Below, piece after piece: positions 7,201 to 30,000 of a stretch of 30,000 nt of DNA. A model generated the notes under the pieces. The model did not search any database, was not told the DNA's origin, and was given only the letters and a program-made list of their open reading frames with translations. The DNA is from an uncultured Azonexus sp. (GTDB taxonomy: Bacteria > Pseudomonadota > Gammaproteobacteria > Burkholderiales > Rhodocyclaceae). The stretch is taken from positions 1-30,000 of the forward strand of contig NZ_CALJNI010000015.1 in NCBI RefSeq assembly GCF_937982035.1, given 5' to 3'. A program made the translations under genes and the position numbers. Each line of letters starts with the position of its first letter. Position 1 is the first letter of the stretch.

Positions 7201-7959
7201 GGTCAGGTCCGGCTGAGCGCCAGTGGTCGGGACCTGCCCCGGGCCACCGGCACGATCCGCACCCGCGACGGTCGTTTCGAGGCCTACGGCCAACGGCTGG
7301 AAATCACCCGCGGCATCCTGACTTTCCAGGGACTGCCCGACAACCCGGCGCTCGACGTGCGCGCCGTGCGTAAAGGCCTGGCAGTCGAACCCGGCGTCCA
7401 GTTGTCCGGCACCGCGCAGCGACCGGTGGTGCGCCTGATCTCGGACCCGGACCTGCCGGACCCGGAAAAACTGTCCTGGCTGATCCTTGGTCACGGCCAG
7501 GACAGCATGAGTGCCGGCGACGCCAGCCTGCTGCTGTCGGCGGCCGGCGGCTTGCTCGGCAACGACTCGGGCAATCTCGTCCAGCAACTGAAACGCACTT
7601 TCGGCATCGACGAATTCGGCGTCCGCCAGGGCAATCTCGACGGCAGCGGCGGCCGTCAGCCGGGCAGCCGCGTCGTTGCCGCCGGCGTCGACACCGGCGC
7701 AACGACGGGCAACCAGATCCTCAGCATCGGCAAGCGCCTGTCGTCGTCGGCCACCCTGAGTTATGAGCAGTCGCTGGGCACGGCCGAAAGCATCGTCAAG
7801 CTGTCGATCGAACTGACCCGCCAGATCACGCTGATCGGGCGGGCCGGCAGCGACAATGCGCTGGACGTGTTCTACACGCTTACCTGGGGTCTTCCGCCGA
7901 CATCACGACGTCAGAGTTCTCGGCGTCAGCCGTCGGCAGATACAGAACCAGAAGATTGA
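4291..7959 (+). CDS. tamB: Translocation and assembly module inner-membrane subunit TamB (DUF490/AsmA-like)
   Basis: I trimmed the 4120..7959 ORF to the ATG at 4291, 2 nt after the tamA stop. This gives the signal anchor MRRLLPLLLTLVVVTGAAGYWLL. The roughly 1200-aa body is repetitive and beta-rich. The DUF490-like C-terminus is ..GKRLSSSATLSYEQSLGTAESIVKLSIELTRQITLIGRAGSDNALDVFYTLTW. Confidence 0.88.
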   Translation: MRRLLPLLLTLVVVTGAAGYWLLNTGGGLQFALNLAGMLSSNRLQVEQADGRLGGPLTIGELRWQDGDTTIVATDLALAWTPGALLQQRLQIESLSTSNLSITTPASDTPTVEPADLQLPLAVHVGELRIAHLHHGGQEIARELVARIDSDGRHHRIDDLRLHSGDVAVRGQVQLDGQAPFPLEGSGEIQGQLEDKPLALAFQAAGPLAGFTVKLDARAGIEGHARVSLNPFAAMPLIEADIKLANIDPAAWRDGLPDARLDLDLKVTPAAGGVSARFDLNNRQAAPLDRPGLPIERLQGQATWLDGQLAFPELQARLGGGELSGRGVWQGELDDGALQLELAVRQLDAIRLHSSLRPTRLDGRLSATLGQQRQDIRVDLRDRRFTLRGTAQHAADTLTLTDVEIAAGQARLLAAGSLQLAEQAFTVDARLQEFDPARFAELPGARINARLQAKGRLQPKPVIDASFALGDSQFRGQPLAGQGELRVDWPTLSGIDLNLALAGNRLTAKGGFGAPGQRLQLAIDAPRLAALGAEGDLKADLNVSGSVARPLVDGELRAGRIGLPGVFRADGVHLSASLAEAADAPLQLGLTLQRLESGAGQRLFAPLTIRGDGSRRQHQMTIDGRLAAGERLQLQVDGSEQDGRWQGMLTQLSLLADSAARNLRLRSPAALRASADGWSVGPLQLAGEPLDWQATIQANADRKALKLDLQASGSRIGRVQAGLTAGVDGPWQLAASAPWQGQATAEIADLGWLGELLGEDWQTGGRIDARLQLAGSPARPALAGTLNGQALSLRLPAQGLALVDGELAADIADNLLSIRRLSFSSARQRAPRPLRMALGEQAGSLEGPGRLDVSGELRVAPGQADGQAALTVRLDRVGVWQRQDQWVSLSGEGKLRWQEAALGIDGRLAIDAAYWQLAPAGAPRLSDDVVIHRPGDQRSPGLRPNLALDVQTDLGRHFLFEGAGLSTRLAGQVRLSASGRDLPRATGTIRTRDGRFEAYGQRLEITRGILTFQGLPDNPALDVRAVRKGLAVEPGVQLSGTAQRPVVRLISDPDLPDPEKLSWLILGHGQDSMSAGDASLLLSAAGGLLGNDSGNLVQQLKRTFGIDEFGVRQGNLDGSGGRQPGSRVVAAGVDTGATTGNQILSIGKRLSSSATLSYEQSLGTAESIVKLSIELTRQITLIGRAGSDNALDVFYTLTWGLPPTSRRQSSRRQPSADTEPED

Positions 7960-11712: not shown

Positions 11713-12297
11713 TCAGTTGACCAGCGCTGCCTCGATTTCGGCGAAGGTCCGCGGCAGATCGAAGCCCAGCACCGGCACGCCGAGCGCACGACCGATCTGG
11801 GTGGCCGAGAACAGGCCGCGAACGCGCGGCAGGCCGGTGGACGGATCGGTATCCTCAACCAGCACGTGCTGACGACCGAGTTGCTTGAGCGCGTTGAGGA
11901 TGTCGGCCACGCGGGCGCGCAACACGTCTTCCAGATACAGGGTGTCGATGCTGGCGATCGGCGTCATCAGGTCGGCCACACGCAGTTCATCGCGCTTGCC
12001 GCCGCGCGCCTGTGCCACCTGCAAAGGCTTCTCACCGAGGATGTCGCGGGCGGTGATCAGGCCGACGACTTCTTCGTCCTTGCCCAGCACCATCAGCAGG
12101 CGGACGCCGCGCGAGATCATGCGCGCATTGGCATCGTCCACCGAGGCTTCGGGACCGATGCTGACCACATTGACCCGGGAAAAATCGGTCATCGCTTCGA
12201 TCGCCGGCGAATCGGCGGCAATCAGGTTGAAACCGGAAACGCACAGCGAGGCATTTTGCGACAGCTTGTGCGCACGAACGTTAACAGGATGGTTCAT
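11713..12297 (-). CDS. CBS-domain pair protein
   Basis: I trimmed the 11713..12411 ORF to the ATG at 12297, which is preceded by GGAGGAAGA. The product is [12 protein letters not shown]... with two CBS-like modules (..[44 protein letters not shown].. and ..[28 protein letters not shown]). Confidence 0.75.
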
Positions 12298-19314: not shown

Positions 19315-19446
19315 GAAAGCTCCTGATTACAAAGACAAGAGCGGAAATTATAGGAAGGCGGCAGAACTTCGATTTGATACAACGCAAGCAAGGCTGCATT
19401 AGTTTTTTGTCTCATATCGGATTGCATAAAAAATCCCGCAAACCAA

Positions 19447-19464
19447 TCGCGCAATATTGCACGA
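19447..19464. promoter_or_regulatory. 18-bp near-perfect palindrome (candidate operator) overlapping the aceE -35 box
   Basis: TCGCGCAATATTGCACGA matches its own reverse complement at 16 of 18 positions. The core GCAATATTGC (19451-19460) is a perfect 10-bp palindrome. Related GCGCAA/TGCGAA words recur at about 19465-19470 and 19485-19491. Confidence 0.4.
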
Positions 19465-19485
19465 TGCGAATTTTGTTTTTACAAT
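19457..19485 (+). promoter_or_regulatory. Candidate sigma70 promoter of aceE-aceF-lpdA
   Basis: TTGCAC (19457-19462), a 17-nt spacer, then TACAAT (19480-19485). It sits in the AT-rich divergent region about 110 nt upstream of the aceE ATG. Confidence 0.45.
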
Positions 19486-19543
19486 GCGCAACAGAAACTA
19501 GGTGTAAACACGGGGTGTGATCCTCCGTGCAAAGCGTTAAAGT

Positions 19544-19566
19544 TGTCCTGCTGAGCCAGCAGGACA
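19544..19566 (+). promoter_or_regulatory. Perfect 10-bp stem-loop in the aceE 5' leader
   Basis: TGTCCTGCTG-agc-CAGCAGGACA, 28 nt upstream of the aceE ATG and just before the AGGAGA RBS. No U-tract follows, so it is not a canonical terminator. Function unknown. Confidence 0.4.
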
Positions 19567-19594
19567 GAATGAAAACCCACGTAGGAGACAAACC

Positions 19595-22264
19595 ATGGCC
19601 GACCAGCCGAACACCCTGCCCGCCGACCAGGACCCGCAGGAAACCCGGGAATGGATCGACGCACTCGAAGGCGTCATTAGCAACGAAGGCGCCGAACGCG
19701 CCCATTACCTGATCGAAACGCTGATCGGTCAGGCCCGCGAGGACGGTATCGACATCCCGTACTCCGCCAACACCGAATACATCAACACCATCCGCGCCGA
19801 CCAGCAGCCCAAGTACCCGGGCGATCCGGACATGGAGATCAAGATTCACTCCTACATCCGCTGGAACGCCATGGCCATGGTCGTGCGTGCCAACAAGCAC
19901 ACCAACGTCGGCGGCCACATCGCCTCCTTCGCCTCCGCCGCCGCGCTGTACGACGTCGGCTTCTCGCATTTCTGGCGCAGCATCAACGACCCGTCCGGCG
20001 GCGACCTGATCTTCTTCCAGGGCCACTCGGTGCCGGGCGTCTATTCGCGCGCCTTCATGCTCGGTCGCCTGACCGAAGAGCAGATGGACAACTTCCGCCA
20101 GGAAACCGACGGCAAGGGCATCTCGTCCTATCCGCACCCCTGGCTGATGCCGGACTTCTGGCAGTTCCCGACCGTCTCGATGGGCCTCGGCCCGATCCAG
20201 GCCATCTACCAGGCCCGCTTCATGAAGTACCTGGACTCGCGCGGTCTGGCCAAGGCCGGCGACCGCAAGGTGTGGGCCTTCCTCGGTGACGGCGAGACTG
20301 ACGAAGTCGAATCGCTCGGCGCCATCGGCATGGCCGGCCGCGAGAAGCTGGACAACCTGATCTTCGTCATCAACTGCAACCTGCAGCGCCTCGACGGTCC
20401 GGTGCGCGGCAACGGCAAGATCATCCAGGAACTCGAAGCCGAATTCCGCGGCGCCGGCTGGAACGTCATCAAGCTGATCTGGGGCACCCACTGGGACGCC
20501 CTGTTCAACCGCGACAAGAAGGGCATCCTCAAGAAGCGCATGATGGAACTGTGCGACGGCGAGTACCAGACCTTCAAGGCCAAGAACGGCGCCTACGTCC
20601 GCGAGCATTTCTTCAACACGCCGGAACTGCGCGAACTGGTCGCCGACTGGACCGACGACGACGTCTGGAACCTGAACCGCGGCGGCCACGACATCTTCAA
20701 GATATTCGCCGCCTACAACGCCGCCGTCACCCACAAGGGTGCGCCGACGCTGATCCTGGCCAAGACCATCAAGGGCTTCGGCATGGGCCAGGCCGGCGAG
20801 GCCATGAACATTTCCCACCAGCAGAAGAAGATGGACAAGGAGCAGATCGCCCGCTTCCGCGACCGCTTCGGCCTGCCGGTGCCGGACGACAAGCTGGAGG
20901 AACTGCCTTACCTGAAGTTCCCGGAAGACTCGGCCGAGTACAAGTACATGCAGGCGCGCCGCGCCGCGCTCGGCGGCTACCTGCCGCAACGCCGCCGCAA
21001 GGCCGAGCCGCTGGCGGTGCCGTCGCTCGACGCGTTCACCGCCCTGCTCAAGGCTTCCGGCGAAGGCCGCGAACTGTCGACGACGATGGCCATCGTGCGC
21101 ATCATGAACATGCTGCTCAAGGACAAGAATGTCGGCAAGAACGTCGTCCCCATCGTCCCGGACGAGTCGCGCACCTTCGGCATGGAAGGCATGTTCCGCG
21201 CCGTCGGCATCTGGAACCAGGAAGGCCAGAACTACGTTCCGGAAGACCACGACCAGCTGATGTTCTACAAGGAGTCGAAGACCGGCCAGGTGCTGCAGGA
21301 AGGCATCAACGAAGCCGGTGCGATGAGCGACTGGATCGCCGCCGCCACGTCGTACTCGGTGCATAACGTCCAGACCATTCCGTTCTACATCTGCTATTCG
21401 ATGTTCGGCCTGCAGCGCACGCTGGACCTGTGCTGGGCTGCCGGCGACCAACGCGCCCGCGGCTTCCTGATCGGCGGCACCGCCGGCCGCACCACGCTGA
21501 ACGGCGAAGGCCTGCAGCACGAAGACGGCCACAGCCTGATCCTGTCGCAACTGATCCCGAACTGCATTTCCTACGACCCGACCTTCCAGTACGAAGTCGC
21601 CGTGATCGCCCAGGACGGCATGCGCCGCATGTTCCAGGAACAGGAAGACGTGTTCTATTACCTGACGGTGATGAACGAGAACTACGAGCACCCGGAAATG
21701 CCGGCCGGCGCCGAAGCCGACATCATCAAGGGCATGTATTCGTTCAAGCAGGGCGGCGATTCGGCCGGCCCGCGCGTGCAACTGCTCGGTTCCGGCACCA
21801 TCTTCCGCGAAGTCATCGCCGCCGCCGAACTGCTCAAGCAGGACTGGGGCGTCGAGGCCGACATCTGGGGTTGCCCGAGCTTCAACGAACTGGCCCGCAA
21901 CGGTCAGGACGTCGCCCGCTGGAACCTGCTGCATCCGCTGGAAGAGCCGAAGCTGTCGCACGTCGAGCAGAAGCTGGCTGGCGCCAAGGGACCGGTCGTC
22001 GCTGCTACCGACTACATCCGGATGTTCGCAGAGCAGATTCGGCCCTTCGTCAAGGCGCCGTACGTCACGCTGGGCACCGACGGCTTCGGTCGCTCCGACA
22101 CCCGCGAGAAGCTGCGTCATTTCTTCGAGGTCGACCGTCACTGGGTGACGCTGGCTGCCCTCAAGGCGCTGGCCGACAACGGCGAGATCGCCCGTGAAAA
22201 GGTCGCGGCCGCGCTGGTCAAGTACAACCTGGATCCGGCCAAGCCGAATCCGATGTCGGTTTAA
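19595..22264 (+). CDS. aceE: Pyruvate dehydrogenase E1 component (homodimeric type)
   Basis: 889-aa ORF with an AGGAGA RBS. Starts MADQPNTLPADQDPQETREWIDALEGVISNEGAERAHYLIETLI.. Also ..GGHIASFASAAALYDVGFSHFW.. and ..GDGETDEVESLGAI.. (TPP-binding GDG motif). Confidence 0.96.
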   Translation: MADQPNTLPADQDPQETREWIDALEGVISNEGAERAHYLIETLIGQAREDGIDIPYSANTEYINTIRADQQPKYPGDPDMEIKIHSYIRWNAMAMVVRANKHTNVGGHIASFASAAALYDVGFSHFWRSINDPSGGDLIFFQGHSVPGVYSRAFMLGRLTEEQMDNFRQETDGKGISSYPHPWLMPDFWQFPTVSMGLGPIQAIYQARFMKYLDSRGLAKAGDRKVWAFLGDGETDEVESLGAIGMAGREKLDNLIFVINCNLQRLDGPVRGNGKIIQELEAEFRGAGWNVIKLIWGTHWDALFNRDKKGILKKRMMELCDGEYQTFKAKNGAYVREHFFNTPELRELVADWTDDDVWNLNRGGHDIFKIFAAYNAAVTHKGAPTLILAKTIKGFGMGQAGEAMNISHQQKKMDKEQIARFRDRFGLPVPDDKLEELPYLKFPEDSAEYKYMQARRAALGGYLPQRRRKAEPLAVPSLDAFTALLKASGEGRELSTTMAIVRIMNMLLKDKNVGKNVVPIVPDESRTFGMEGMFRAVGIWNQEGQNYVPEDHDQLMFYKESKTGQVLQEGINEAGAMSDWIAAATSYSVHNVQTIPFYICYSMFGLQRTLDLCWAAGDQRARGFLIGGTAGRTTLNGEGLQHEDGHSLILSQLIPNCISYDPTFQYEVAVIAQDGMRRMFQEQEDVFYYLTVMNENYEHPEMPAGAEADIIKGMYSFKQGGDSAGPRVQLLGSGTIFREVIAAAELLKQDWGVEADIWGCPSFNELARNGQDVARWNLLHPLEEPKLSHVEQKLAGAKGPVVAATDYIRMFAEQIRPFVKAPYVTLGTDGFGRSDTREKLRHFFEVDRHWVTLAALKALADNGEIAREKVAAALVKYNLDPAKPNPMSV

Positions 22265-22279
22265 GAAGGGAGCGACGAC

Positions 22280-23911
22280 ATGAGCCAGATCATTGAAGTC
22301 AAGGTTCCCGATATCGGTGATTTCGACGAAGTCCCGGTCATCGAACTGTTCGTCAAAGTCGGCGACACGATCAATGTCGACGACGCCATCGTCACCCTCG
22401 AATCCGACAAGGCCACCATGGATGTGCCGAGCACGGTTGCCGGCACGGTCAAGGAAGTGCTGGTGCAAGTCGGTTCCAAGGTGGCCGAAGGCGCCCTGCT
22501 GATCAAGGTCGAAGCTGGCGCGGCTGCCGCTGTTGAAGCGGCTCCCGCCCCCGCTGCGACACCGGCCCCCGCCGCTGCGCCGGCCGCTCCGGCGGCTGCA
22601 CCTGCCCCGGCTGCCGCCGGCGGCCTGGTCGAGGTCAAGGTGCCGGATATCGGCGATTTTGCGGAGGTCCCGGTTATCGAGTTGTACGTCAAGGTTGGCG
22701 ACAGCATCAAGATCGACGATGCGATCGCCACGCTCGAATCCGATAAGGCGACGATGGATGTTCCGTCCACCGTCGCCGGCACGGTCAAGGAAGTGCTGGT
22801 CCAGATTGGCTCCAAGGTCGGCGAAGGCACGGTCCTGATCAAGGTCGAAACCGGTGCCGGCGCAGCTGCCCCGGCTGCCGCGGCGCAAGCTGCCACGCCG
22901 GCGCCAGTTGCTGCACCGGTTGCCGCAGCACCCGCTGCCGCACCGGCCGCCGCGCCCGTCGCACTGGCCCCGGCCCTGCCGGTCGGCGGCAAGGTGCACG
23001 CCTCGCCATCGGTTCGCGCCTATGCCCGCGAGCTCGGCGTCGACCTGACCAAGGTCAGCGCTTCCGGGCCCAAGGGTCGTATCGTCAAGGAAGACCTGAC
23101 CAAGTACGTCAAGGGCGTGATGTCCGGCGCCACTGCCGCCCCGGCGGCTGCCGCCGGCGCCAGCCTGGGTGGCGGGCTCGACCTGCTGCCCTGGCCGAAG
23201 GTCGATTTCAGCAAGTTCGGCGAGATCGAGGTCAAGCCGCTGTCGCGGATCAAGAAGATTTCCGGCCAGAACCTGTCGCGCAACTGGGTCATGATTCCGG
23301 CCGTGACCTATCACGAAGACGCCGACATCACCGACCTGGAAGCCTTCCGCGTCCTGCTCAACAAGGAAAACGAGAAGGGCAGCGGCGCCAAGCTGACCAT
23401 GCTGGCCTTCCTGGTCAAGGCCTGCGTCAAGGCACTGGAGAAGTTCCCCGAGTTCAACGCCTCGCTCGACGGCGACAATCTGGTGCTGAAGAAGTACTTC
23501 AACATCGGCTTCGCTGCCGACACGCCGAACGGTCTGGTCGTGCCGGTGATCAAGAACGCCGACAAGAAGTCGGTGTTCGAGATCGCCCAGGAATCCGGCG
23601 ACCTCGCCAAGCAGGCCCGTGACGGCAAGCTCAAGCCGGCCGACATGCAGGGCGCCTGCTTCACCATCTCGTCGCTCGGCGGCATCGGCGGCACCTACTT
23701 CGCGCCGATTGTGAACGCCCCGGAAGTCGCCATCCTCGGCGTCAACAAGTCGACGATGAAGCCGGTCTGGGACGGCAAGCAATTCGTGCCGCGCCTGACC
23801 CTGCCGCTGTCGCTGACCGCCGACCACCGCGTCATCGACGGCGCGCTGGCGACCCGCTTCAACGTCTATATCGCACAACTGCTGGCCGACTTCCGTCGCG
23901 TCGCGCTGTAA
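22280..23911 (+). CDS. aceF: Dihydrolipoyllysine-residue acetyltransferase, E2 of the pyruvate dehydrogenase complex (two lipoyl domains)
   Basis: 543-aa ORF. Two lipoyl modules carry ..TLESDKATMDVP... Ala/Pro linkers separate them. E3-binding domain VHASPSVRAYARELGVDLTKVSASGPKGRIVKEDL. The catalytic domain ends ..LSLTADHRVIDGALATRF... Confidence 0.96.
   Translation: MSQIIEVKVPDIGDFDEVPVIELFVKVGDTINVDDAIVTLESDKATMDVPSTVAGTVKEVLVQVGSKVAEGALLIKVEAGAAAAVEAAPAPAATPAPAAAPAAPAAAPAPAAAGGLVEVKVPDIGDFAEVPVIELYVKVGDSIKIDDAIATLESDKATMDVPSTVAGTVKEVLVQIGSKVGEGTVLIKVETGAGAAAPAAAAQAATPAPVAAPVAAAPAAAPAAAPVALAPALPVGGKVHASPSVRAYARELGVDLTKVSASGPKGRIVKEDLTKYVKGVMSGATAAPAAAAGASLGGGLDLLPWPKVDFSKFGEIEVKPLSRIKKISGQNLSRNWVMIPAVTYHEDADITDLEAFRVLLNKENEKGSGAKLTMLAFLVKACVKALEKFPEFNASLDGDNLVLKKYFNIGFAADTPNGLVVPVIKNADKKSVFEIAQESGDLAKQARDGKLKPADMQGACFTISSLGGIGGTYFAPIVNAPEVAILGVNKSTMKPVWDGKQFVPRLTLPLSLTADHRVIDGALATRFNVYIAQLLADFRRVAL
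22295..22513 (+). repeat. Lipoyl-domain module copy 1 (aceF)
   Basis: Encodes EVKVPDIGDFDEVPVIELFVKVGDTINVDDAIVTLESDKATMDVPSTVAGTVKEVLVQVGSKVAEGALLIKVE. It shares an exact 26-nt block GCCGGCACGGTCAAGGAAGTGCTGGT (22439-22464) with the other two copies. Confidence 0.9.
22631..22849 (+). repeat. Lipoyl-domain module copy 2 (aceF)
   Basis: Encodes EVKVPDIGDFAEVPVIELYVKVGDSIKIDDAIATLESDKATMDVPSTVAGTVKEVLVQIGSKVGEGTVLIKVE. The exact 26-nt block lies at 22775-22800. Confidence 0.9.
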
Positions 23912-23923
23912 GGGGGAATGACC

Positions 23924-25693
23924 ATGAGCAATCTGGTTGAAGTGAAAGTCCCGGACATCGGCGATTTCGACAGCGTGCCGGTCATCGACCTGTTCGTGAA
24001 GGTCGGCGACACGATCAAGGTGGACGACGCTATCGTCACCCTGGAATCGGACAAGGCCACCATGGACGTACCGTCCACGGTCGCCGGCACGGTCAAGGAA
24101 GTGCTGGTGCAGGTCGGTTCCAAGGTCAGCGAAGGTGCGCTGCTGATCAAGGTCGAGGCCGGTGCAGCCACCGCCGCCAGCGCCCCGGCGCCGGCCGCGG
24201 CAACCCCGGCAGCGGCCCCCATGGCCGCACCGGCTGCCGCCAGCCACGGCGGCAGCGCCGACATCGAGTGCGAGATGCTCGTCCTCGGCGCCGGCCCCGG
24301 CGGCTATTCCGCCGCTTTCCGTTCGGCCGATCTGGGCATGAAGACGGTCATCGTCGAACGCTATTCGACGCTCGGCGGTGTCTGCCTGAACGTCGGCTGC
24401 ATCCCGTCCAAGGCACTGCTGCACGTCACCGCCGTCATGGACGAAACCAGCCACCTGGCCGACGCCGGTGTCACTTTCGCCGCGCCGCAGGTCGATATCG
24501 ACAAGCTGCGCGCACACAAGGACAAGGTCGTCGGCAAGCTGACCGGCGGTCTGGCCGGCATGGCCAAGGGGCGCAAGGTCGACATCGTGCGCGGCTACGG
24601 CCATTTCCTCGACCCGCATCACCTTGAAGTCGAGGAAACCACCGGCAGCGGCCAGGACAAGACCGGCAGCAAGAAGGTCATCAAGTTCCAGAAGTGCATC
24701 ATCGCCGCCGGTTCGGCAGCGGTGCATCTGCCCTTCATCCCGCGCGACCCGCGCATCGTCGATTCGACCGGCGCGCTGGAACTGCGCTTCGTGCCGGAGA
24801 AGATGCTGGTCATCGGCGGCGGCATCATCGGCCTGGAAATGGCCACCGTCTATTCAACGCTGGGCGCCAGGGTCGATGTCGTCGAAATGGGCGACGCGCT
24901 GATGCAGGGCCCGGACCGCGATGCGGTCAAGGTCTGGGAAAAGCAGAACCTGTCGCGCTTCGACAAGATCATGCTGAAGACCAAGACAGTCGCGGTCGAC
25001 GCCAAGGACGACGGCCTCTGGGTCAAGTTCGAGGGCGAAGGCGCGCCAGCCGAAGCGGTCAGGTACGACCTGATCCTGCAAGCGGCAGGCCGCTCGCCGA
25101 ACGGCAAGAAGTTCGCCGCCGACAAGGCCGGCGTGATTGTCGACGAGCGCGGTTTCATCCCGGTCGACAAGCAGATGCGGACCAATGTCCCGCACATCTT
25201 CGCCATCGGCGATCTGGTCGGCCAGCCGATGCTGGCGCACAAGGCGGTGCATGAAGCGCACGTCGCCGCCGAAGTCGCCGCCGGCCACAAGGCCGCTTTC
25301 GACGCCCAGGTCATCCCCGGCGTGGCGTATACCCATCCGGAAGTGGCGTGGGTCGGCTACACCGAGGATCAGGCGAAGAAGGAAGGCCGCAAGGTCGAAA
25401 CCGCCAAGTTCCCCTGGGCGGCCAGCGGTCGCGCCATCGCCAACGGCGCCGACTACGGCTTCACCAAGCTGATCTTCGATGCCGAAACGCACCGCGTCAT
25501 CGGCGGCGCCATCGTCGGCCCGTCGGCCGGCGACATGATCGGCGAAGTCTGCCTGGCGATCGAGATGGGCTGCGACGCCGTCGACATCGGCAAGACCATC
25601 CACCCGCATCCCACCCTGGGCGAAACCGTCGGCATGGCCGCCGAAGTTGCCCACGGCTCCTGCACGGACGTTCCCGCGCCGCGCAAGAAGTAA
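23924..25693 (+). CDS. lpdA: Dihydrolipoyl dehydrogenase (E3) with a fused N-terminal lipoyl domain
   Basis: The ORF track starts at 23918 (MTMSNL..). I prefer ATG 23924 because the GGGGGA RBS then sits 6 nt upstream, and the product MSNLVEVKV.. parallels aceF MSQIIEVKV... A lipoyl domain and Ala/Pro linker precede the FAD fold ..MLVLGAGPGGYSAAFRSADLG... The redox disulfide is GGVCLNVGCIPSKALLH. Confidence 0.93.
   Translation: MSNLVEVKVPDIGDFDSVPVIDLFVKVGDTIKVDDAIVTLESDKATMDVPSTVAGTVKEVLVQVGSKVSEGALLIKVEAGAATAASAPAPAAATPAAAPMAAPAAASHGGSADIECEMLVLGAGPGGYSAAFRSADLGMKTVIVERYSTLGGVCLNVGCIPSKALLHVTAVMDETSHLADAGVTFAAPQVDIDKLRAHKDKVVGKLTGGLAGMAKGRKVDIVRGYGHFLDPHHLEVEETTGSGQDKTGSKKVIKFQKCIIAAGSAAVHLPFIPRDPRIVDSTGALELRFVPEKMLVIGGGIIGLEMATVYSTLGARVDVVEMGDALMQGPDRDAVKVWEKQNLSRFDKIMLKTKTVAVDAKDDGLWVKFEGEGAPAEAVRYDLILQAAGRSPNGKKFAADKAGVIVDERGFIPVDKQMRTNVPHIFAIGDLVGQPMLAHKAVHEAHVAAEVAAGHKAAFDAQVIPGVAYTHPEVAWVGYTEDQAKKEGRKVETAKFPWAASGRAIANGADYGFTKLIFDAETHRVIGGAIVGPSAGDMIGEVCLAIEMGCDAVDIGKTIHPHPTLGETVGMAAEVAHGSCTDVPAPRKK
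23939..24157 (+). repeat. Lipoyl-domain module copy 3 (N-terminus of lpdA)
   Basis: Encodes EVKVPDIGDFDSVPVIDLFVKVGDTIKVDDAIVTLESDKATMDVPSTVAGTVKEVLVQVGSKVSEGALLIKVE. The exact 26-nt block lies at 24083-24108. Confidence 0.9.
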
Positions 25694-25709: not shown

Positions 25710-26525
25710 CTAAGTTGTTGTATTAGCGTTCGTCTTCGGCGACGGCTCACCCCGTCGCCTTTTTTTTGTGTTGTCGCGGCAACTGGACGTTTCACAGGGT
25801 TGAGCCAGCGAAAGCCACAGGTGATGAACCGTAATCATGCCTGCTGGCGTCGAACCACCCTGCAGGCAGAACATTCGTTCATGTGTTGACTGATAGACCG
25901 GATCGCCCGAGGCCGTTGGGATTAGCGCTTGAAGCATGCCATGTAGCGCTAACTCAGTGGCAAGCTGAGCATCGCTCAAGCATGTCGCCAACCCACCCGG
26001 CAGCGAGCAAATATTACGCACGTAGCCAACCATCATGGACCTGTCCACCGCCCAAGCATAATCGCCGTTTACGAAGCGGATCAAACCCGCTCGGCAATAA
26101 ATGCTCGGTAAGGGATGGATGCTGTCGATCGGTTTGCATTCGATGAAGATGGCTGCTGGAACCGAATTGGCTGTCGGAATCTGGCCGCGCAGGGGGCGAA
26201 AGGCAAGATCGGGCTGTTTATCCAGATGCCGGCCATCAAAATTCCGCATGTTTCCCTCTCTGACAGAGGTTTCGAATTTCGATAATCCGGGAATAGCCGC
26301 TTCGCCGGCGGCATGAAACTCCCCAAGAATCATGTAAAGGCGCTCGGTAATTTCGTCCTCGGTTGCGGCACATATCGAGAAAGTGCCGGCCTGCACTTCT
26401 TGCTGCAAGAGCCGCCAGGCCATGGAGAGGGCATTCTGAACAACGACAAGCAGGGATGGAGCAATCTGTGCGGGAGAGTCTGGGGCTGCTGGTCGCGACC
26501 AGTTCCGGGTCATCAGGCCACTCAT
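25710..26525 (-). CDS. PD-(D/E)xK-type nuclease-like protein (putative restriction or effector nuclease of the cassette)
   Basis: 271-aa ORF whose ATG overlaps the stop of the upstream methyltransferase (ATGA at 26522-26525). The signature order is an acidic helix TEDEITERLY (E56-E61), then KQPD106LAF, then AAIFIE129CK131PID. This gives E...PD-x22-ExK with hydrophobic beta-strand context. Low GC relative to the core. The last roughly 25 codons (..KKRRRGEPSPKTNANTTT) are read from the antisense of the lpdA terminator. Confidence 0.65.
   Translation of the reverse strand: MSGLMTRNWSRPAAPDSPAQIAPSLLVVVQNALSMAWRLLQQEVQAGTFSICAATEDEITERLYMILGEFHAAGEAAIPGLSKFETSVREGNMRNFDGRHLDKQPDLAFRPLRGQIPTANSVPAAIFIECKPIDSIHPLPSIYCRAGLIRFVNGDYAWAVDRSMMVGYVRNICSLPGGLATCLSDAQLATELALHGMLQALIPTASGDPVYQSTHERMFCLQGGSTPAGMITVHHLWLSLAQPCETSSCRDNTKKRRRGEPSPKTNANTTT
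25738..25767 (+). terminator. Rho-independent terminator of the aceE-aceF-lpdA operon
   Basis: GGCGACGG-ctcacc-CCGTCGCC forms an 8-bp stem followed by eight T residues (25760-25767), 45 nt after the lpdA stop. Confidence 0.85.
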
Positions 26526-29521
26526 CGTTTGGCACGCTCCTCAAGCAAGGCTCCGTGCGCCCACAGGATATCGGAGGCCAGCAGTCTGGTCTGGGTGTGG
26601 GTCCAGTAGCGTCGCTGATCGAGCAGGCCGATGACAATCAGCGGCTGATGAGCGTCAACGACGGTGATACGGCTGACGGCAAGGTCGTCGGCATGCTTGA
26701 TCCATGTGGGTGGCAAAGCCTCTGGCAGCGTGCATTGCCCGAGGCAGACAGCGATGAATTTCCAGGGAAGTCGGCTATCGCCCGCAAGTTGCTGGACATG
26801 GACCTGATATCCACTTGCAGCCAACACGCTGGATAGCTCCTCGGCCAGACGAGCGCGGAATTGCTCGGCGCAGTGCTGACTTACCGGGCTGGAAGCGAAC
26901 TGTTTGATTGCAGGGAAAGGCGAACGCGTCGCGAGCGTGTCTCCGATGGTTTCCCGATCGTAATGGCCGAGACCATAGATCGCAGCAACCGTCTGATCCA
27001 GTTCAGCCCAATCGGGTTGGCGATCAAGCAGGGCGACCGCGCAGCGATCGATTTGCTCGCGGCAGCTTGCGTTGAAGCATTCCGGCGCGACAAACGGGAA
27101 ACTCTCGATATCGCGCAATTGTAAGGATTCACGCTCAACGCCAAATTTGGCGCTGGTCATTAGCGCCCAATATTCGAATAGCTGGCTGTGCATCAGCACA
27201 AGCAGGTACTTGGCCAGGAATTCGCCATCAGGGTGATTGGCGGCGGAGAAACCGTAATACGATTCCGAATAGGCGATGTTCGAAAGGCTGAGCAGTGCGC
27301 GACCTTGATTGCGGTCTGATTTGTATCCTTCGCGGACCAAAACTAATGGTGCCCGATAGATTTCCGGGCTCCGTGGCCATTGCAAGCCGCCAGGCTGGTA
27401 GGGCGTCAGCGTATCAGTCTGGACCACAAAAGGATGCCTCTCATAGCGGGCACCCAGCGTCGGGTAACCCTCAAGAAACGAGTCATCATCTGTTCGCTTG
27501 GCGACTTGATACCCCTGCCCACGTAGCAATCCGTGCTCGTGATTCCAGTATTCACCGAGGGAAGTCTTTGCCCGTTCGTGAATGCGCTGAACAATAGCGG
27601 CATCAAGCACGGAACCCCGATACAAGGTCTTGATCAGCGCCGCTTGTTTGGTAACCAGATCAAGTGCGATCGGCACAGCATCACTGGCATCAATCCGCAT
27701 GCGTCCTTTTTCGCTGAGTCCGGGTTGATCGTCGGGGCTGACCAGAACGAACTGATCTCCAGCCTGAGGCACTTGATTGTCCGCAAACAGCAGACAGAAA
27801 GGCTGATCGACATTGGGCCAAACCCGGGTCTGACGAACGGATGCGCCATTCAGAATACCGGTGATGGACAAAGCCCGGAAAATCGCGCTACGGGCAGAAA
27901 ATCCGGCTGGCGACATCTTGAACAGCCAACGCCCCGCCAAGGCCAGTGCGATACGTCCACCCGGCCTTGCCCAATCCATGGCCCCCCATATGAAGGGCAG
28001 GTCGGTCACCTGATCCGGATTTTTATAGGTACGGTAGAGATCGAGCAGACCCCGTTGTGCGGCGATGGCACGGCAGCGTTTTGTAAACGTCCGGTCTATC
28101 GCGGCATAGGCGGGCTTGAGGCTGGTCCAAGGTGGATTGCCGATGACCAGATCGAAGGCTGAACGATATTGCGCCGACACATGATCGCCCATGCTACCGG
28201 CCATGGGGCGGATAGAGCACGGATCGGCATCAGGATCGGCAACGTCAATCAAGACCTTGCCCTCCAGTTTGCTGAAAGTCAGTTCTTCGACCGGGGCTGG
28301 GTCGGGGTCGAGCTCCAGCGCGGTGAGATACAAGGCCAAGGCGGCAAGCATGCGCGCGTGGGCATTGATGTCAAAGCCGACCAATTGCTCATTCAATATG
28401 TGCCGCAAGGCAGCGCGTTCAGGGCGTCGCCCAGTTTCCGCAAAATACAGTTCTGCGAGCTTGCGGAAGCTCGCAACCAGAAAGACACCCGCGCCGCATG
28501 CCGGGTCGAGCACCCTTGCCGCCGCACCGGCCGGATGCCGATGGAAAGCTTCGTCAACCATGTATTCGGCAATATGCGCCGGGGTGTAATAGACGCTGGT
28601 ATCGTGCCGAGTCTCTGCATCGAAGCGGCACATCAACTCTTCGTAAGTTTCGCTCAGGAGACCGATTGGCAGATGGTCAAAATCCAGGTCTCCCCAGTTC
28701 AGCGACCGTTGTGAAGCACCGGGAGCGCGCGGCATGTCCAGACCGAGGATGGCCTCAAGGGGACGACTGAGGCCTTGCCCAAGCTGCAGAAAAAGATAGC
28801 GAAAATATTCCCGGTAATTCTGCGTGGGCAGTTTCAGCAGGTCGCCATTGAAGGTCTGGTCCAGCCAGGCGTTGGTTTCAACCAGGCAATCTTCACTGGC
28901 GAAACACATCTCCAGTGATTGCGCACTGGGTGAAATGGCGCTCAGATGATGTTGCTTGATAATCCCGCGCCCTATCAGGTAGCGGAAAAACAGGGCTCGT
29001 CCGGTCAACGCGATGCTTTCGCTGGTCGACATGCCCATCTCTTTCAATTCCTGACTGGCGTCCGTCATCAGCCCGAAGAGCACGCTACGCAGCAGCAGTT
29101 CAGACGGCTGGGCCAGATTTTCACCGTAAGCGAGCCTGGCGAGGACACCGAGGGCATCGGCTTGGTCGGCGAAAAAGGAGACAGGCTTGGAATCCGGTAC
29201 GGGACGGAGATCCGTTGCGTAGATATCCAGGCGACCGAGGCGCAGCACGCCAAGCCAAGCGGGGTCGCCACGCATGGCCAACTTGCGGCGTAGCTCGGCG
29301 ATATAACGAGCGCTGTCGGCCAAGCCGCTCAGTCGTGCCACATCAACGACATAGAGCAGCGCTTGCGCTTTGTTTTCTATAACCGTGTCGACCATGGGAG
29401 ATGAGCCACCGCGAATGAGGTCGACATAACGCAGCAGACGAGGATCGTCCTGGCGGTGCAGTTCGACACAATCAACCGGACGTGCGCCGAAGTCTCCGAG
29501 TCGGTCGAGGGTTGTTCTCAT
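26522..29521 (-). CDS. Large gamma-class N6-adenine DNA methyltransferase with helical N-terminal region and specificity-domain-like C-terminus (MmeI/Eco57I/PglX-like architecture)
   Basis: 999-aa ORF. Motif X is YYTPAHIAEYMVDEA (aa 311-325). Motif I is RVLDPACGAGVFLV (aa 336-349, nt 28475-28513). It also has GFDINAHARMLAALAL. Motif IV is DLVIGNPPW (NPPW at nt 28127-28138). Upstream, TGRALFFRYLIGRGII resembles the helical-spacer motif of MmeI/PglX-type enzymes. Downstream, YLLVLMHSQLFEYWALMTSAK..LRDIESFPF resembles the conserved TRD motif (LNS..f.f....l..lPiP) of type IIG/HsdS specificity domains. All calls are by eye. Confidence 0.75.
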   Translation of the reverse strand: MRTTLDRLGDFGARPVDCVELHRQDDPRLLRYVDLIRGGSSPMVDTVIENKAQALLYVVDVARLSGLADSARYIAELRRKLAMRGDPAWLGVLRLGRLDIYATDLRPVPDSKPVSFFADQADALGVLARLAYGENLAQPSELLLRSVLFGLMTDASQELKEMGMSTSESIALTGRALFFRYLIGRGIIKQHHLSAISPSAQSLEMCFASEDCLVETNAWLDQTFNGDLLKLPTQNYREYFRYLFLQLGQGLSRPLEAILGLDMPRAPGASQRSLNWGDLDFDHLPIGLLSETYEELMCRFDAETRHDTSVYYTPAHIAEYMVDEAFHRHPAGAAARVLDPACGAGVFLVASFRKLAELYFAETGRRPERAALRHILNEQLVGFDINAHARMLAALALYLTALELDPDPAPVEELTFSKLEGKVLIDVADPDADPCSIRPMAGSMGDHVSAQYRSAFDLVIGNPPWTSLKPAYAAIDRTFTKRCRAIAAQRGLLDLYRTYKNPDQVTDLPFIWGAMDWARPGGRIALALAGRWLFKMSPAGFSARSAIFRALSITGILNGASVRQTRVWPNVDQPFCLLFADNQVPQAGDQFVLVSPDDQPGLSEKGRMRIDASDAVPIALDLVTKQAALIKTLYRGSVLDAAIVQRIHERAKTSLGEYWNHEHGLLRGQGYQVAKRTDDDSFLEGYPTLGARYERHPFVVQTDTLTPYQPGGLQWPRSPEIYRAPLVLVREGYKSDRNQGRALLSLSNIAYSESYYGFSAANHPDGEFLAKYLLVLMHSQLFEYWALMTSAKFGVERESLQLRDIESFPFVAPECFNASCREQIDRCAVALLDRQPDWAELDQTVAAIYGLGHYDRETIGDTLATRSPFPAIKQFASSPVSQHCAEQFRARLAEELSSVLAASGYQVHVQQLAGDSRLPWKFIAVCLGQCTLPEALPPTWIKHADDLAVSRITVVDAHQPLIVIGLLDQRRYWTHTQTRLLASDILWAHGALLEERAKR

Positions 29522-29973
29522 CTAGCTTGGACAAGCACATCAGCAACCAGCGGCAATTCGCGCTGGGGCGGAGCGATACCGAGGTATACATTGATACGGT
29601 TACGCTCTTCCGCCATATCCAGAACCCAACCAGGTTCGCAAATCGGCGCGGCATCAATTCTGCGCGTCATTCCGTCCTCAAGGCGAATGAAAACCCATTC
29701 CTCAACACTTACAGCCTTTGGCTCAGACAGGTAACGATGAATACCGCCGGATAATCGCCCCAGCAATCGGCTCTTGACGCAAAAGCGATCTTCCAGCGTT
29801 TGCAGGACAGCCATGGCGAGCAAGTCGGCAATGTCGAAGCGACGCGCGCTCCGCTCCGTAGTTTCAATCAGGGAAAAAGGAGGCAACTGAGTCCACGCAT
29901 GGGCGCGCGATCGGCATAGACCACCCAGAGCGCTACACACATCCTTGACGGTAAAGGAAAGGGACCGAGCCAT
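29518..29973 (-). CDS. Small protein with a possible N-terminal MerR/excisionase-like helix-turn-helix (candidate regulator of the cassette)
   Basis: 151-aa ORF and the first gene of the cassette. Its stop overlaps the methyltransferase ATG (ATGA at 29518-29521). The N-terminus FTVKDVCSALGGLCRSRAHAWTQ followed by RRFDIADLLAMAVLQTLE resembles the hT.ke.a..lG.s..t...W pattern of HTH_17/MerR-type domains. The resemblance is weak and by eye only. An AT-rich sequence (29974-30000) lies upstream. Confidence 0.4.
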   Translation of the reverse strand: MARSLSFTVKDVCSALGGLCRSRAHAWTQLPPFSLIETTERSARRFDIADLLAMAVLQTLEDRFCVKSRLLGRLSGGIHRYLSEPKAVSVEEWVFIRLEDGMTRRIDAAPICEPGWVLDMAEERNRINVYLGIAPPQRELPLVADVLVQAR

Positions 29974-30000
29974 ATCTGCCTAAAATTCCATTCAAATCTG

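Follow-up and report, generated by a model that had tools for sequence, protein, structure and literature searches.

A putative two-subunit, type IIL-like restriction-modification system with a separate nuclease in an uncultured Azonexus

Closest described systems and the Azonexus cassette

Restriction-modification enzymes of types IIG and IIL such as MmeI, DrdV and BpuSI are proteins of about 1000 amino acids (aa), in which an N-terminal alpha/beta domain, a connector with an NGxL-type motif and a conserved Trp, a gamma-class N6-adenine DNA methylase domain, a single target-recognition domain and a C-terminal domain follow each other. The nuclease motif of MmeI, D70...E80-x-K82, is fully conserved, homologues without this motif showed no endonuclease activity, and genes of the family that possess it have no consistently conserved flanking gene (PMC2731913). 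Here, we analyzed a stretch of 30,000 nucleotides (nt) from an uncultured Azonexus sp. (contig NZ_CALJNI010000015.1, positions 1 to 30,000; referred to as the window), one end of which carries a cassette of three minus-strand open reading frames (ORFs) for a 151-aa helix-turn-helix (HTH) regulator, a 999-aa methylase and a 271-aa PD-(D/E)xK-type nuclease. The 999-aa protein shares the size and domain order of the type IIG/IIL enzymes. Unlike these, it is devoid of the PD-ExK motif located on the same chain in MmeI (D70, E80, K82; PMC2731913), and the cassette instead encodes a separate, translationally coupled small PD-(D/E)xK protein. With a probability of about 0.55, we propose that the locus encodes a two-subunit, type IIL-like restriction-modification system with its nuclease acting in trans, organized as a compact mobile defence operon with a regulator.

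An MmeI-like methylase/specificity subunit without PD-ExK motif is also present in the Bacillus subtilis YeeA/DnmA-YeeB-YeeC group, for whose MmeI homologues the use of separate cleavage subunits, with a helicase and a GIY-YIG protein as partners, was proposed speculatively in 2009 (PMC2731913). In contrast to this group, the partner here is a single protein of ~250 aa with a PD-(D/E)xK signature, the cassette and related loci contain no helicase or GIY-YIG gene, and no sequence relation was found between this nuclease and the partners of the YeeA group. The PglX/BrxX protein of bacteriophage exclusion (BREX) systems is likewise an MmeI-like methylase that carries a recognition domain but no nuclease active site, and PglX, which has no nuclease domain, depends on partner proteins (PMC11341690). 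Here, however, the partner is a nuclease, so that DNA cleavage would be expected. PglZ, BrxC/PglY, BrxL, BrxA and BrxB are absent from the cassette, and neither PglZ nor BrxC/PglY was found in ~95 related loci inspected.

The cassette also lacks HsdS and HsdR genes of type I systems and a helicase gene corresponding to Res of type III systems, the methylase is of the gamma class and not a beta-class Mod, and the three genes gave no PADLOC match to Drm proteins of DISARM. With controller-regulated type II systems, the operon has in common that an HTH regulator comes first, that a palindromic operator is predicted over the regulator's own promoter, and that nuclease and methylase are separate proteins. 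It differs from them in a regulator that is MerR/excisionase-like here and LexA-like, WYL or MerR elsewhere instead of XRE alone, in the order regulator-methylase-nuclease with translational coupling, and in a methylase of about twice the usual size. A working analogy is offered by heterodimeric type IIS enzymes such as BspD6I with its large and small subunits, in which a specificity-free small nuclease cuts when it is recruited by a sequence-specific large subunit. No homology is claimed, and the large subunit of BspD6I is a nuclease, not a methylase. The other nearest item in the literature is a 'split type IIG' suggestion for Haloferax HVO_A0006.

A preliminary description of this DNA, made from the sequence alone, had set the cassette apart from type I, type III, BREX and DISARM systems; this remains valid now that the borders of the cassette are known. 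It had further presented the layout as one that does not fit the standard classes. For the methylase-nuclease pair itself, no prior description was found in the searchable literature, the coverage of which is incomplete, but the idea of a separate nuclease is older, as it had already been put forward for the YeeA group (PMC2731913).

A methylase without nuclease motif and its nuclease partner

ORF calling yielded three minus-strand ORFs at 29973..29518 (151 aa), 29521..26522 (999 aa) and 26525..25710 (271 aa), and both the coordinates and the two chaining ATGA overlaps reported in the preliminary description were reproduced. The low GC content noted there was found as well (0.571 in 25770-30000 vs 0.664 in 1-25700), and the GC content at third codon positions is 0.55-0.63 in the cassette genes vs 0.87 in the adjacent lpdA. 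The features of the two core proteins are as follows:

26522..29521, minus strand: 999-aa methylase/specificity subunit, a predicted N6-adenine DNA methylase of the gamma class that contains its own target-recognition domain and is built like type IIG/IIL/PglX proteins
29102..29521, minus strand: N-terminal alpha/beta domain, residues 1-140, without nuclease catalytic motif
28652..29101, minus strand: helical connector, residues 141-290, with helices in the structural model and with invariant W219 and TFNGDLL
28835-28855, minus strand: TFNGDLL motif, residues 223-229, invariant columns, retained in relatives at 34-38% identity
27842..28651, minus strand: methyltransferase domain, residues 291-560, from Pfam matches and motifs invariant in the alignment
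28487-28513, minus strand: motif I, VLDPACGAG, residues 337-345
28127-28138, minus strand: motif IV, NPPW, residues 462-465
26525..27841, minus strand: target-recognition domain (residues ~561-860) and C-terminal domain (residues ~861-999), from Foldseek alignments, with conserved RYW..TQ.RL
29518..29521, minus strand: regulator/methylase junction, ATGA comprising the stop of the 151-aa gene and the start of the 999-aa gene
26522..26525, minus strand: methylase/nuclease junction, ATGA comprising the stop of the 999-aa gene and the start of the 271-aa gene
25710..26525, minus strand: 271-aa PD-(D/E)xK-type nuclease, predicted from invariant residues and modelled fold
26358-26360, 26208-26210, 26139-26141 and 26133-26135, minus strand: catalytic codons of the nuclease for E56, D106, E129 and K131, respectively

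In the 999-aa protein (an identical protein is WP_298398224.1, uncultured Azonexus), the Pfam models N6_Mtase, MmeI_Mtase and Eco57I all scored above cut-off within residues 288-559. Motif I precedes motif IV and the recognition domain is C-terminal, which is the gamma arrangement. An AlphaFold2 model (mean predicted local distance difference test (pLDDT) 83, predicted template modelling score 0.83) has helices over residues 144-260, and Foldseek searches with it found CamA over ~640-670 columns and M.BseCI, both covering methylase plus recognition domain, BpuSI and DrdV over 950-1000 columns and BrxX/PglX over ~1000-1100 columns. The best PADLOC matches are type IIG enzyme-methylase profiles of similar length (REase_MTase_IIG, E-value 1e-25), which are collinear from residue 167 only, while the PglX, MAD2 and HsdM models match the methylase core alone, far under their cut-offs; NCBIfam PglX profiles reached 31-40 bits vs cut-offs of 400-900, and the hsdM model 13.9 bits vs a cut-off of 242. 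Together, the profile and fold matches point to the domain order of type IIG/IIL/PglX proteins. The RYW..TQ.RL motif of the C-terminal domain is retained in distant homologues. Due to the PADLOC label, annotation pipelines would file the locus as type IIG. The preliminary description had called the system unclassified; in view of this label that is no longer strictly the case, but the label fails on the same-chain nuclease motif.

This missing motif is the decisive feature of the N-terminal domain. Throughout the family, only Y32, E49 and R84 are invariant polar residues within positions 1-140, and neither a conserved D..ExK nor a conserved Lys was found there in alignments of close and distant members. 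D45 is invariant in the close clade, but both D34 and D45 are substituted in distant members. A profile search of the domain against Protein Data Bank (PDB) sequences gave no match, and hhalign detected no relation between the domain and the 271-aa nuclease, so that it did not arise from the partner by decay. In the modelled domain, helices and strands follow each other in an order similar to that reported for the nuclease domain of MmeI, and the domain may represent a decayed nuclease fold.

The 271-aa protein (WP_157272466.1, annotated as 'hypothetical protein') gave no Pfam, PADLOC or NCBIfam match. An exhaustive profile search, however, placed it in a family with 542 representative clusters at 50% identity (E <= 1e-10 for 414 of these), and nearly all of the 150 best matches listed are stand-alone proteins of ~230-260 aa. 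Among 51 representatives sharing 25-56% identity with the query, E56, D106, E129 and K131 are invariant and P105 is nearly so. None of these 51 matches any Pfam or PADLOC model, and the family profile found no match among PDB sequences. In the AlphaFold2 model (pLDDT 86), E56 opens a helix, D106 directly precedes a strand and E129/K131 lie within the next strand, which is followed by a helix and a further strand (DSSP elements H56-76, E107-109, E126-133, H139-152 and E162-169; the first core strand was not called). The best Foldseek matches of this model, EcoO109I and BbvCI among them, were non-significant. With respect to its conserved residues, the 271-aa protein looks like an active nuclease. 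The catalytic motifs pointed out in the preliminary description, VLDPACGAG and NPPW in the methylase and E..PD..ExK in the nuclease, are thus not only present, but also invariant in the family alignments.

Several Cys and His residues of the nuclease (C52, C130, C144, C173, C244, C249, H137, H215 and H235; codons within 25779-26372) are invariant in the proteobacterial clade, where they could form a clade-specific metal or disulfide site. In the wider family, H235 alone is invariant and H215 nearly so. A zinc-binding role was considered for them and dropped, as the residues are not conserved family-wide.

The methylase and nuclease genes are strictly linked. A search with the methylase profile alone retrieved 79 metagenome loci (33-82% identity), 76 of which have enough flanking DNA, and in 75 of these 76 the methylase gene is immediately followed by a nuclease homologue in the same orientation. 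The same arrangement was found in all plasmid and genome loci examined, and look-ups begun from the nuclease led to an upstream methylase in four of four cases. The preliminary description had raised the conservation of the module as a unit as a point to be surveyed, and for the methylase-nuclease pair it is supported by these counts. At the methylase stop/nuclease start, 61 of 86 loci have an NTGA overlap, the genes of nine others overlap by 1 nt, and the remaining distances range from -14 to +4 nt; an overlap that recurs this often is not due to chance. The ATGA overlap between regulator and methylase is likewise annotated on a Pseudomonas frederiksbergensis plasmid.

Plasmids of P. frederiksbergensis, Burkholderia glumae, Agrobacterium tumefaciens and Allorhizobium carry the pair, and it was also found in genomes of Acidobacteriota and Opitutales as well as in Vreelandella, Microbulbifer and Thiocapsa. 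A single-sequence scan of genome contigs returned four loci, and for Pseudomonas aeruginosa, 60 blocks of the assembly collection have an index entry for the nuclease. No homologue was detected in the phage genomes and E. coli genomes searched. These homologous loci indicate that the trio or the pair recurs across many bacterial phyla. As far as can be judged from sequence, the system is real, conserved and widespread, and it is built around an unannotated nuclease family.

Two annotation matters concern methylase homologues. In P. aeruginosa records, the methylase start is called 42 codons late (957 aa). In the Acidobacteriota locus L004 (3651-6983, 7284-10210), a frameshift splits the methylase into 219 + 799 aa, and the gene is divergently paired with one for a 1110-aa protein that, judged by its sequence, resembles a PLD-nuclease/SNF2-helicase fusion.

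Regulator, operator and genomic setting

The remaining features of the cassette are its first gene, the adjoining leader and the border at lpdA:

29518..29973, minus strand: 151-aa regulator with a MerR/excisionase-type HTH in its N-terminal part (residues ~6-30, FTVKDVCSALGGLCRSRAHAW)
29974..30000, minus strand: 5' leader of the operon including the last 4 nt (29997-30000) of the palindromic operator
25738..25769, plus strand: intrinsic terminator of lpdA, a hairpin stem followed by T8, at the right-hand junction of the inserted cassette

The 151-aa protein of the window has no Pfam match, and a profile search with the regulator among PDB sequences was equally unproductive. Its family comprises 74 homologues, which mostly share a contig with a methylase, and matches to HTH_17 (16 of 30) and MerR_1 (14 of 30) were all sub-threshold (best E-values 6e-4 to 2e-3). 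A homologue heads the operon in the beta-/gamma-proteobacterial clade, in B. glumae and in two distant metagenome loci. Elsewhere, the first slot is occupied by a 96-aa XRE-family regulator (Agrobacterium and Allorhizobium), by a bona fide MerR_1 protein (L036, E-value 8e-10; MerR_1 in L037, too) or by a WYL-domain protein (L074), and the Opitutales locus has no regulator gene at all. Among 44 distinct upstream ORFs tested, 12 encode LexA-like proteins (LexA_DNA_bind + Peptidase_S24). These belong to a distant clade with ~35% methylase identity, contain an IAAG cleavage-site motif and overlap or abut the methylase start (L048 (3282-3965), L058, L060, L061, L063, L077, L083, L085-L089 and L092). 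A head gene of this kind would place the methylase-nuclease operon under a self-cleaving, possibly SOS-responsive repressor. As the first gene varies or is missing, methylase and nuclease form the core of the system and the regulator is exchangeable. The preliminary description had listed a leading DNA-binding-like protein as part of the cassette. Its HTH type is consistent with the sub-threshold family matches, but it is not a fixed member.

In the window, the 151-aa gene is intact (29518-29973). In Azonexus hydrophilus DSM 23864 (L002 7544-8001), to which the window is 98.1% identical, the gene is frameshifted near codon 40-45, and NCBI annotates a 98-aa protein (WP_211226404.1). Strain variation, a sequencing error or a loss of regulation could lie behind this difference.

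Upstream of the 151-like genes, we found a palindrome of the form W-CTG-N13/14-CAG-W that encloses a -10-like box (TATAAT or TAGAAT), recognized by alignment only. In 27 of the 29 loci with a 151-like gene, it is positioned at -45 or -53/-54 from the start codon, compared to a background of 0.0086 sites per 90 nt (L001 (1054-1075), L003, L006, L010, L011, L015-L035, L075 and L079). At the present locus, it reads ACTGCTTTAGAATTCTGACAGA (~29997-30018) and lies almost wholly outside the window. Inverted repeats were detected in L006, L009 and L010, with arms that differ by locus and are still palindromic in each, and L075 and L079 contain two or three copies of a longer site, ATCTGCGTA-N-TACGCAGAT. 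The palindrome is probably an autoregulatory operator through which the regulator would act on the -10 box.

The cassette is limited to three genes and bounded by lpdA and a thioesterase gene. On a public contig of 5.5 kb with the identical locus, a divergent 4HBT thioesterase gene lies 245 nt 5' of the 151-aa gene, and the further genes that had been considered possible beyond base 30000 do not belong to the system. At the other border, the block had been described as starting right after the lpdA terminator; the terminator actually falls within the last ~20 codons of the 271-aa ORF. The tail KKRRRGEPSPKTNANTTT, comprising the last ~17 residues of the nuclease, is encoded by the reverse complement of the terminator hairpin and T-run (25710-25769). 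Homologues are devoid of this tail and stop ~15-20 residues earlier, and residues 259-271 of the model have a pLDDT below 50. The tail is therefore best explained as a non-native read-through created by the insertion junction, where the native stop of the nuclease gene seems to have been lost. The lpdA hairpin may terminate both convergent transcripts.

A related metagenome-assembled genome (L003), the flanks of which are 86% identical to Azonexus, carries the cassette at the same 3' end of lpdA. There, the cassette is bracketed by two copies of the lpdA 3' end, a direct repeat of 161 nt with 90% identity (7228-7388 and 11919-12079), which suggests site-specific insertion. This repeat was not found in A. 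hydrophilus (L002), and the cassette itself is without integrase. As to the wider surroundings, the cassette is a bare three-gene insertion amid housekeeping genes in Azonexus and Vreelandella, while in other genomes it has defence and mobility genes as neighbours. These are AbiE, a caspase-like protein, a restriction endonuclease, an integrase and Dnd-like genes at one locus, DarT, SIR2, HNH and VapBC at another locus, and Gabija-like genes, a RES toxin and TniQ (a Tn7-like context) in Microbulbifer. In P. aeruginosa (L011-L013, L095), a phage-type integrase adjoins the trio, and the island further contains a 2121-aa DEAD/Helicase_C/MZB protein, UvrD, an SLFN-like helicase, a MazG-like protein, SymE and a 2098-aa kinase-DUF4011-AAA protein. 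In Opitutales/Acidobacteriota loci, a type IIG gene or a PLD-SNF2 gene is adjacent to the cassette. The preliminary description had proposed a survey of defence islands, and such islands were found in these other genomes. It had also regarded the cassette as horizontally acquired, which the GC content of the genes and of their third codon positions, together with the occurrence on plasmids, in integrase islands and in a Tn7-like context elsewhere, supports on compositional and comparative grounds.

Proposed mechanism and alternative explanations

In the proposed mechanism, the 151-aa HTH protein would bind the palindrome covering its own -10 box and thereby set the level and timing of expression of the whole operon, as controller proteins of type II systems do. 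The 999-aa protein would read a specific DNA site via its own recognition domain and methylate an adenine at N6, thereby protecting host DNA. Its N-terminal domain would have lost, or never had, a nuclease active site, and the 271-aa protein, the translation of which is coupled to the end of the methylase gene, would supply cleavage in trans. Most likely, the nuclease would be complexed with, or controlled by, the methylase subunit as the source of site specificity, so that unmethylated incoming DNA would be cut and methylated host DNA spared. The domains, the motifs, the missing nuclease motif of the large protein, the linkage, the coupling, the operator and the contexts were observed, and all activities, the complex and the origin of the cleavage specificity are inferred. 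We favour this two-subunit reading because the large protein is without nuclease motif, linkage is strict and coupled by overlaps, the nuclease residues are invariant, a regulator with a predicted operator is present, defence genes are found as neighbours, and precedents exist in the literature.

Some observations weigh against it. A nuclease of ~250 aa is large enough for DNA recognition of its own, like type IIP enzymes. The one exception among the 76 metagenome loci, L046 (325-4420), encodes a 1048-aa methylase homologue that is not followed by a nuclease homologue within ~950 nt and may be an orphan methylase descended from the system. A strict sigma-70 consensus scan 5' of the regulator gene passed no promoter. 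Recognition-domain swaps between close relatives, from which an independence of the nuclease from specificity could have been seen, were not found, the largest gap between methylase-domain and recognition-domain identity being 0.27. Finally, the covariation of the subunits was calculated from non-independent pairs and is a hint only. In this analysis, the methylase domains and the nuclease diverge together; with the methylase domain controlled for, nuclease divergence correlates best with the helical connector (partial rho 0.41) and least with the recognition domain (partial rho 0.20 overall and 0.04 among distant pairs). In favour of the two-subunit reading, this weakly hints that it is the connector, rather than the DNA specificity, to which the nuclease is matched.

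The covariation also bears on an alternative that we regard as unlikely, but take seriously, namely a classical controller-regulated type II system in which the 271-aa protein is a self-sufficient, sequence-specific endonuclease and the 999-aa protein its unusually large cognate methylase, without formation of a complex. Separate nuclease and methylase genes with a small HTH regulator are the standard layout of such systems, XRE-type regulators do come first in the Agrobacterium and Allorhizobium loci, and in size the nuclease is comparable to type IIP enzymes, with EcoO109I and BbvCI among its non-significant best Foldseek matches. While recognition domain and nuclease diverge at similar overall rates, as this alternative would have it, nuclease divergence does not track the recognition domain once the methylase domain is controlled for. 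A stand-alone methylase such as CamA or M.BseCI needs ~550 aa only, and yet the extra N-terminal domain, connector and C-terminal domain, ~430 aa in total, are conserved across phyla. Translational coupling of methylase and nuclease is near-universal. In addition, the nuclease family is recognizably homologous across the entire range of methylase divergence; independent type II nucleases of different specificity usually share no similarity (PMC2731913).

Two further explanations change the role of one or both proteins. It is highly improbable that the 999-aa protein is a complete cutting and methylating type IIG/IIL enzyme and that the 271-aa protein is a nuclease accessory or unrelated to it, such as a second-strand cutter, a repair nuclease or a type IV-like enzyme. 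The best PADLOC profiles of the same length, the alignment of BpuSI and DrdV over 950-1000 columns, the MmeI-nuclease-like order of helices and strands in the N-terminal domain (PMC2731913) and the invariance of D45 in the close clade would fit such an enzyme. Nevertheless, D..ExK and a conserved Lys are missing from residues 1-140, D34 and D45 are substituted in distant members, the type IIG profiles leave the N-terminal domain unaligned, MmeI homologues without the motif had no endonuclease activity (PMC2731913), and a dispensable small nuclease is hard to square with strict linkage and coupling.

Very unlikely, too, is a function that is not primarily anti-phage, either as a selfish addiction module with the methylase as antidote and the nuclease as toxin, or as an epigenetic methylase with a repair nuclease in the manner of dcm/vsr. 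The location on plasmids and integrative elements, the tight two-gene unit with regulator and the position of the A. hydrophilus cassette amid housekeeping genes, not in a defence island, would be compatible with it, and the vsr gene overlaps dcm comparably. Addiction and defence, however, are not mutually exclusive for restriction-modification systems, and no N6-methyladenine-derived lesion is known to call for a dedicated repair nuclease. Defence-gene neighbours in many genomes and LexA-like and WYL regulators, which are consistent with a stress- or defence-type response, also speak against this function, and it fits the neighbourhoods less well than the two-subunit restriction-modification system does.

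A more far-reaching version of the two-subunit reading can be put forward tentatively, at slightly less than even odds. The loci might represent a 'split type IIL' class, in which a nuclease-less MmeI/PglX-like subunit recruits a detachable, specificity-free PD-(D/E)xK subunit of ~250 aa and which is combined with interchangeable regulators. Such a class would stand between single-chain type IIL enzymes on the one side and partner-dependent BREX methylases on the other, and LexA-like repressors would make restriction DNA-damage-responsive in some lineages.

For defence annotation, the label of the large protein has the consequence that probably hundreds of such loci are recorded as single-gene type IIG systems and their nuclease, with 542 clusters and no model, is missed. 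If the two-subunit reading is true, the locus would provide a natural type IIL-like enzyme with a nuclease in trans, which bears on the relations between fused type IIG/IIL enzymes, PglX of BREX and type I systems and on the question of how an 'unmethylated site' is signalled from a methylase subunit to a cleavage module. A recognition/methylation subunit with a separable cutter would also be attractive for engineering since MmeI-type recognition domains can be re-programmed. LexA-like and WYL head regulators suggest stress-induced restriction in some operons, and the presence in many P. aeruginosa assemblies offers a tractable host.

Outside the cassette, a minus-strand ORF of 1771 aa spans 19412-24727 antisense to the pyruvate-dehydrogenase/lpdA region. 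With its extreme bias towards Ala, Gly, Arg and Asp, this ORF almost certainly represents a stop-free antisense frame within high-GC coding DNA and not a gene.

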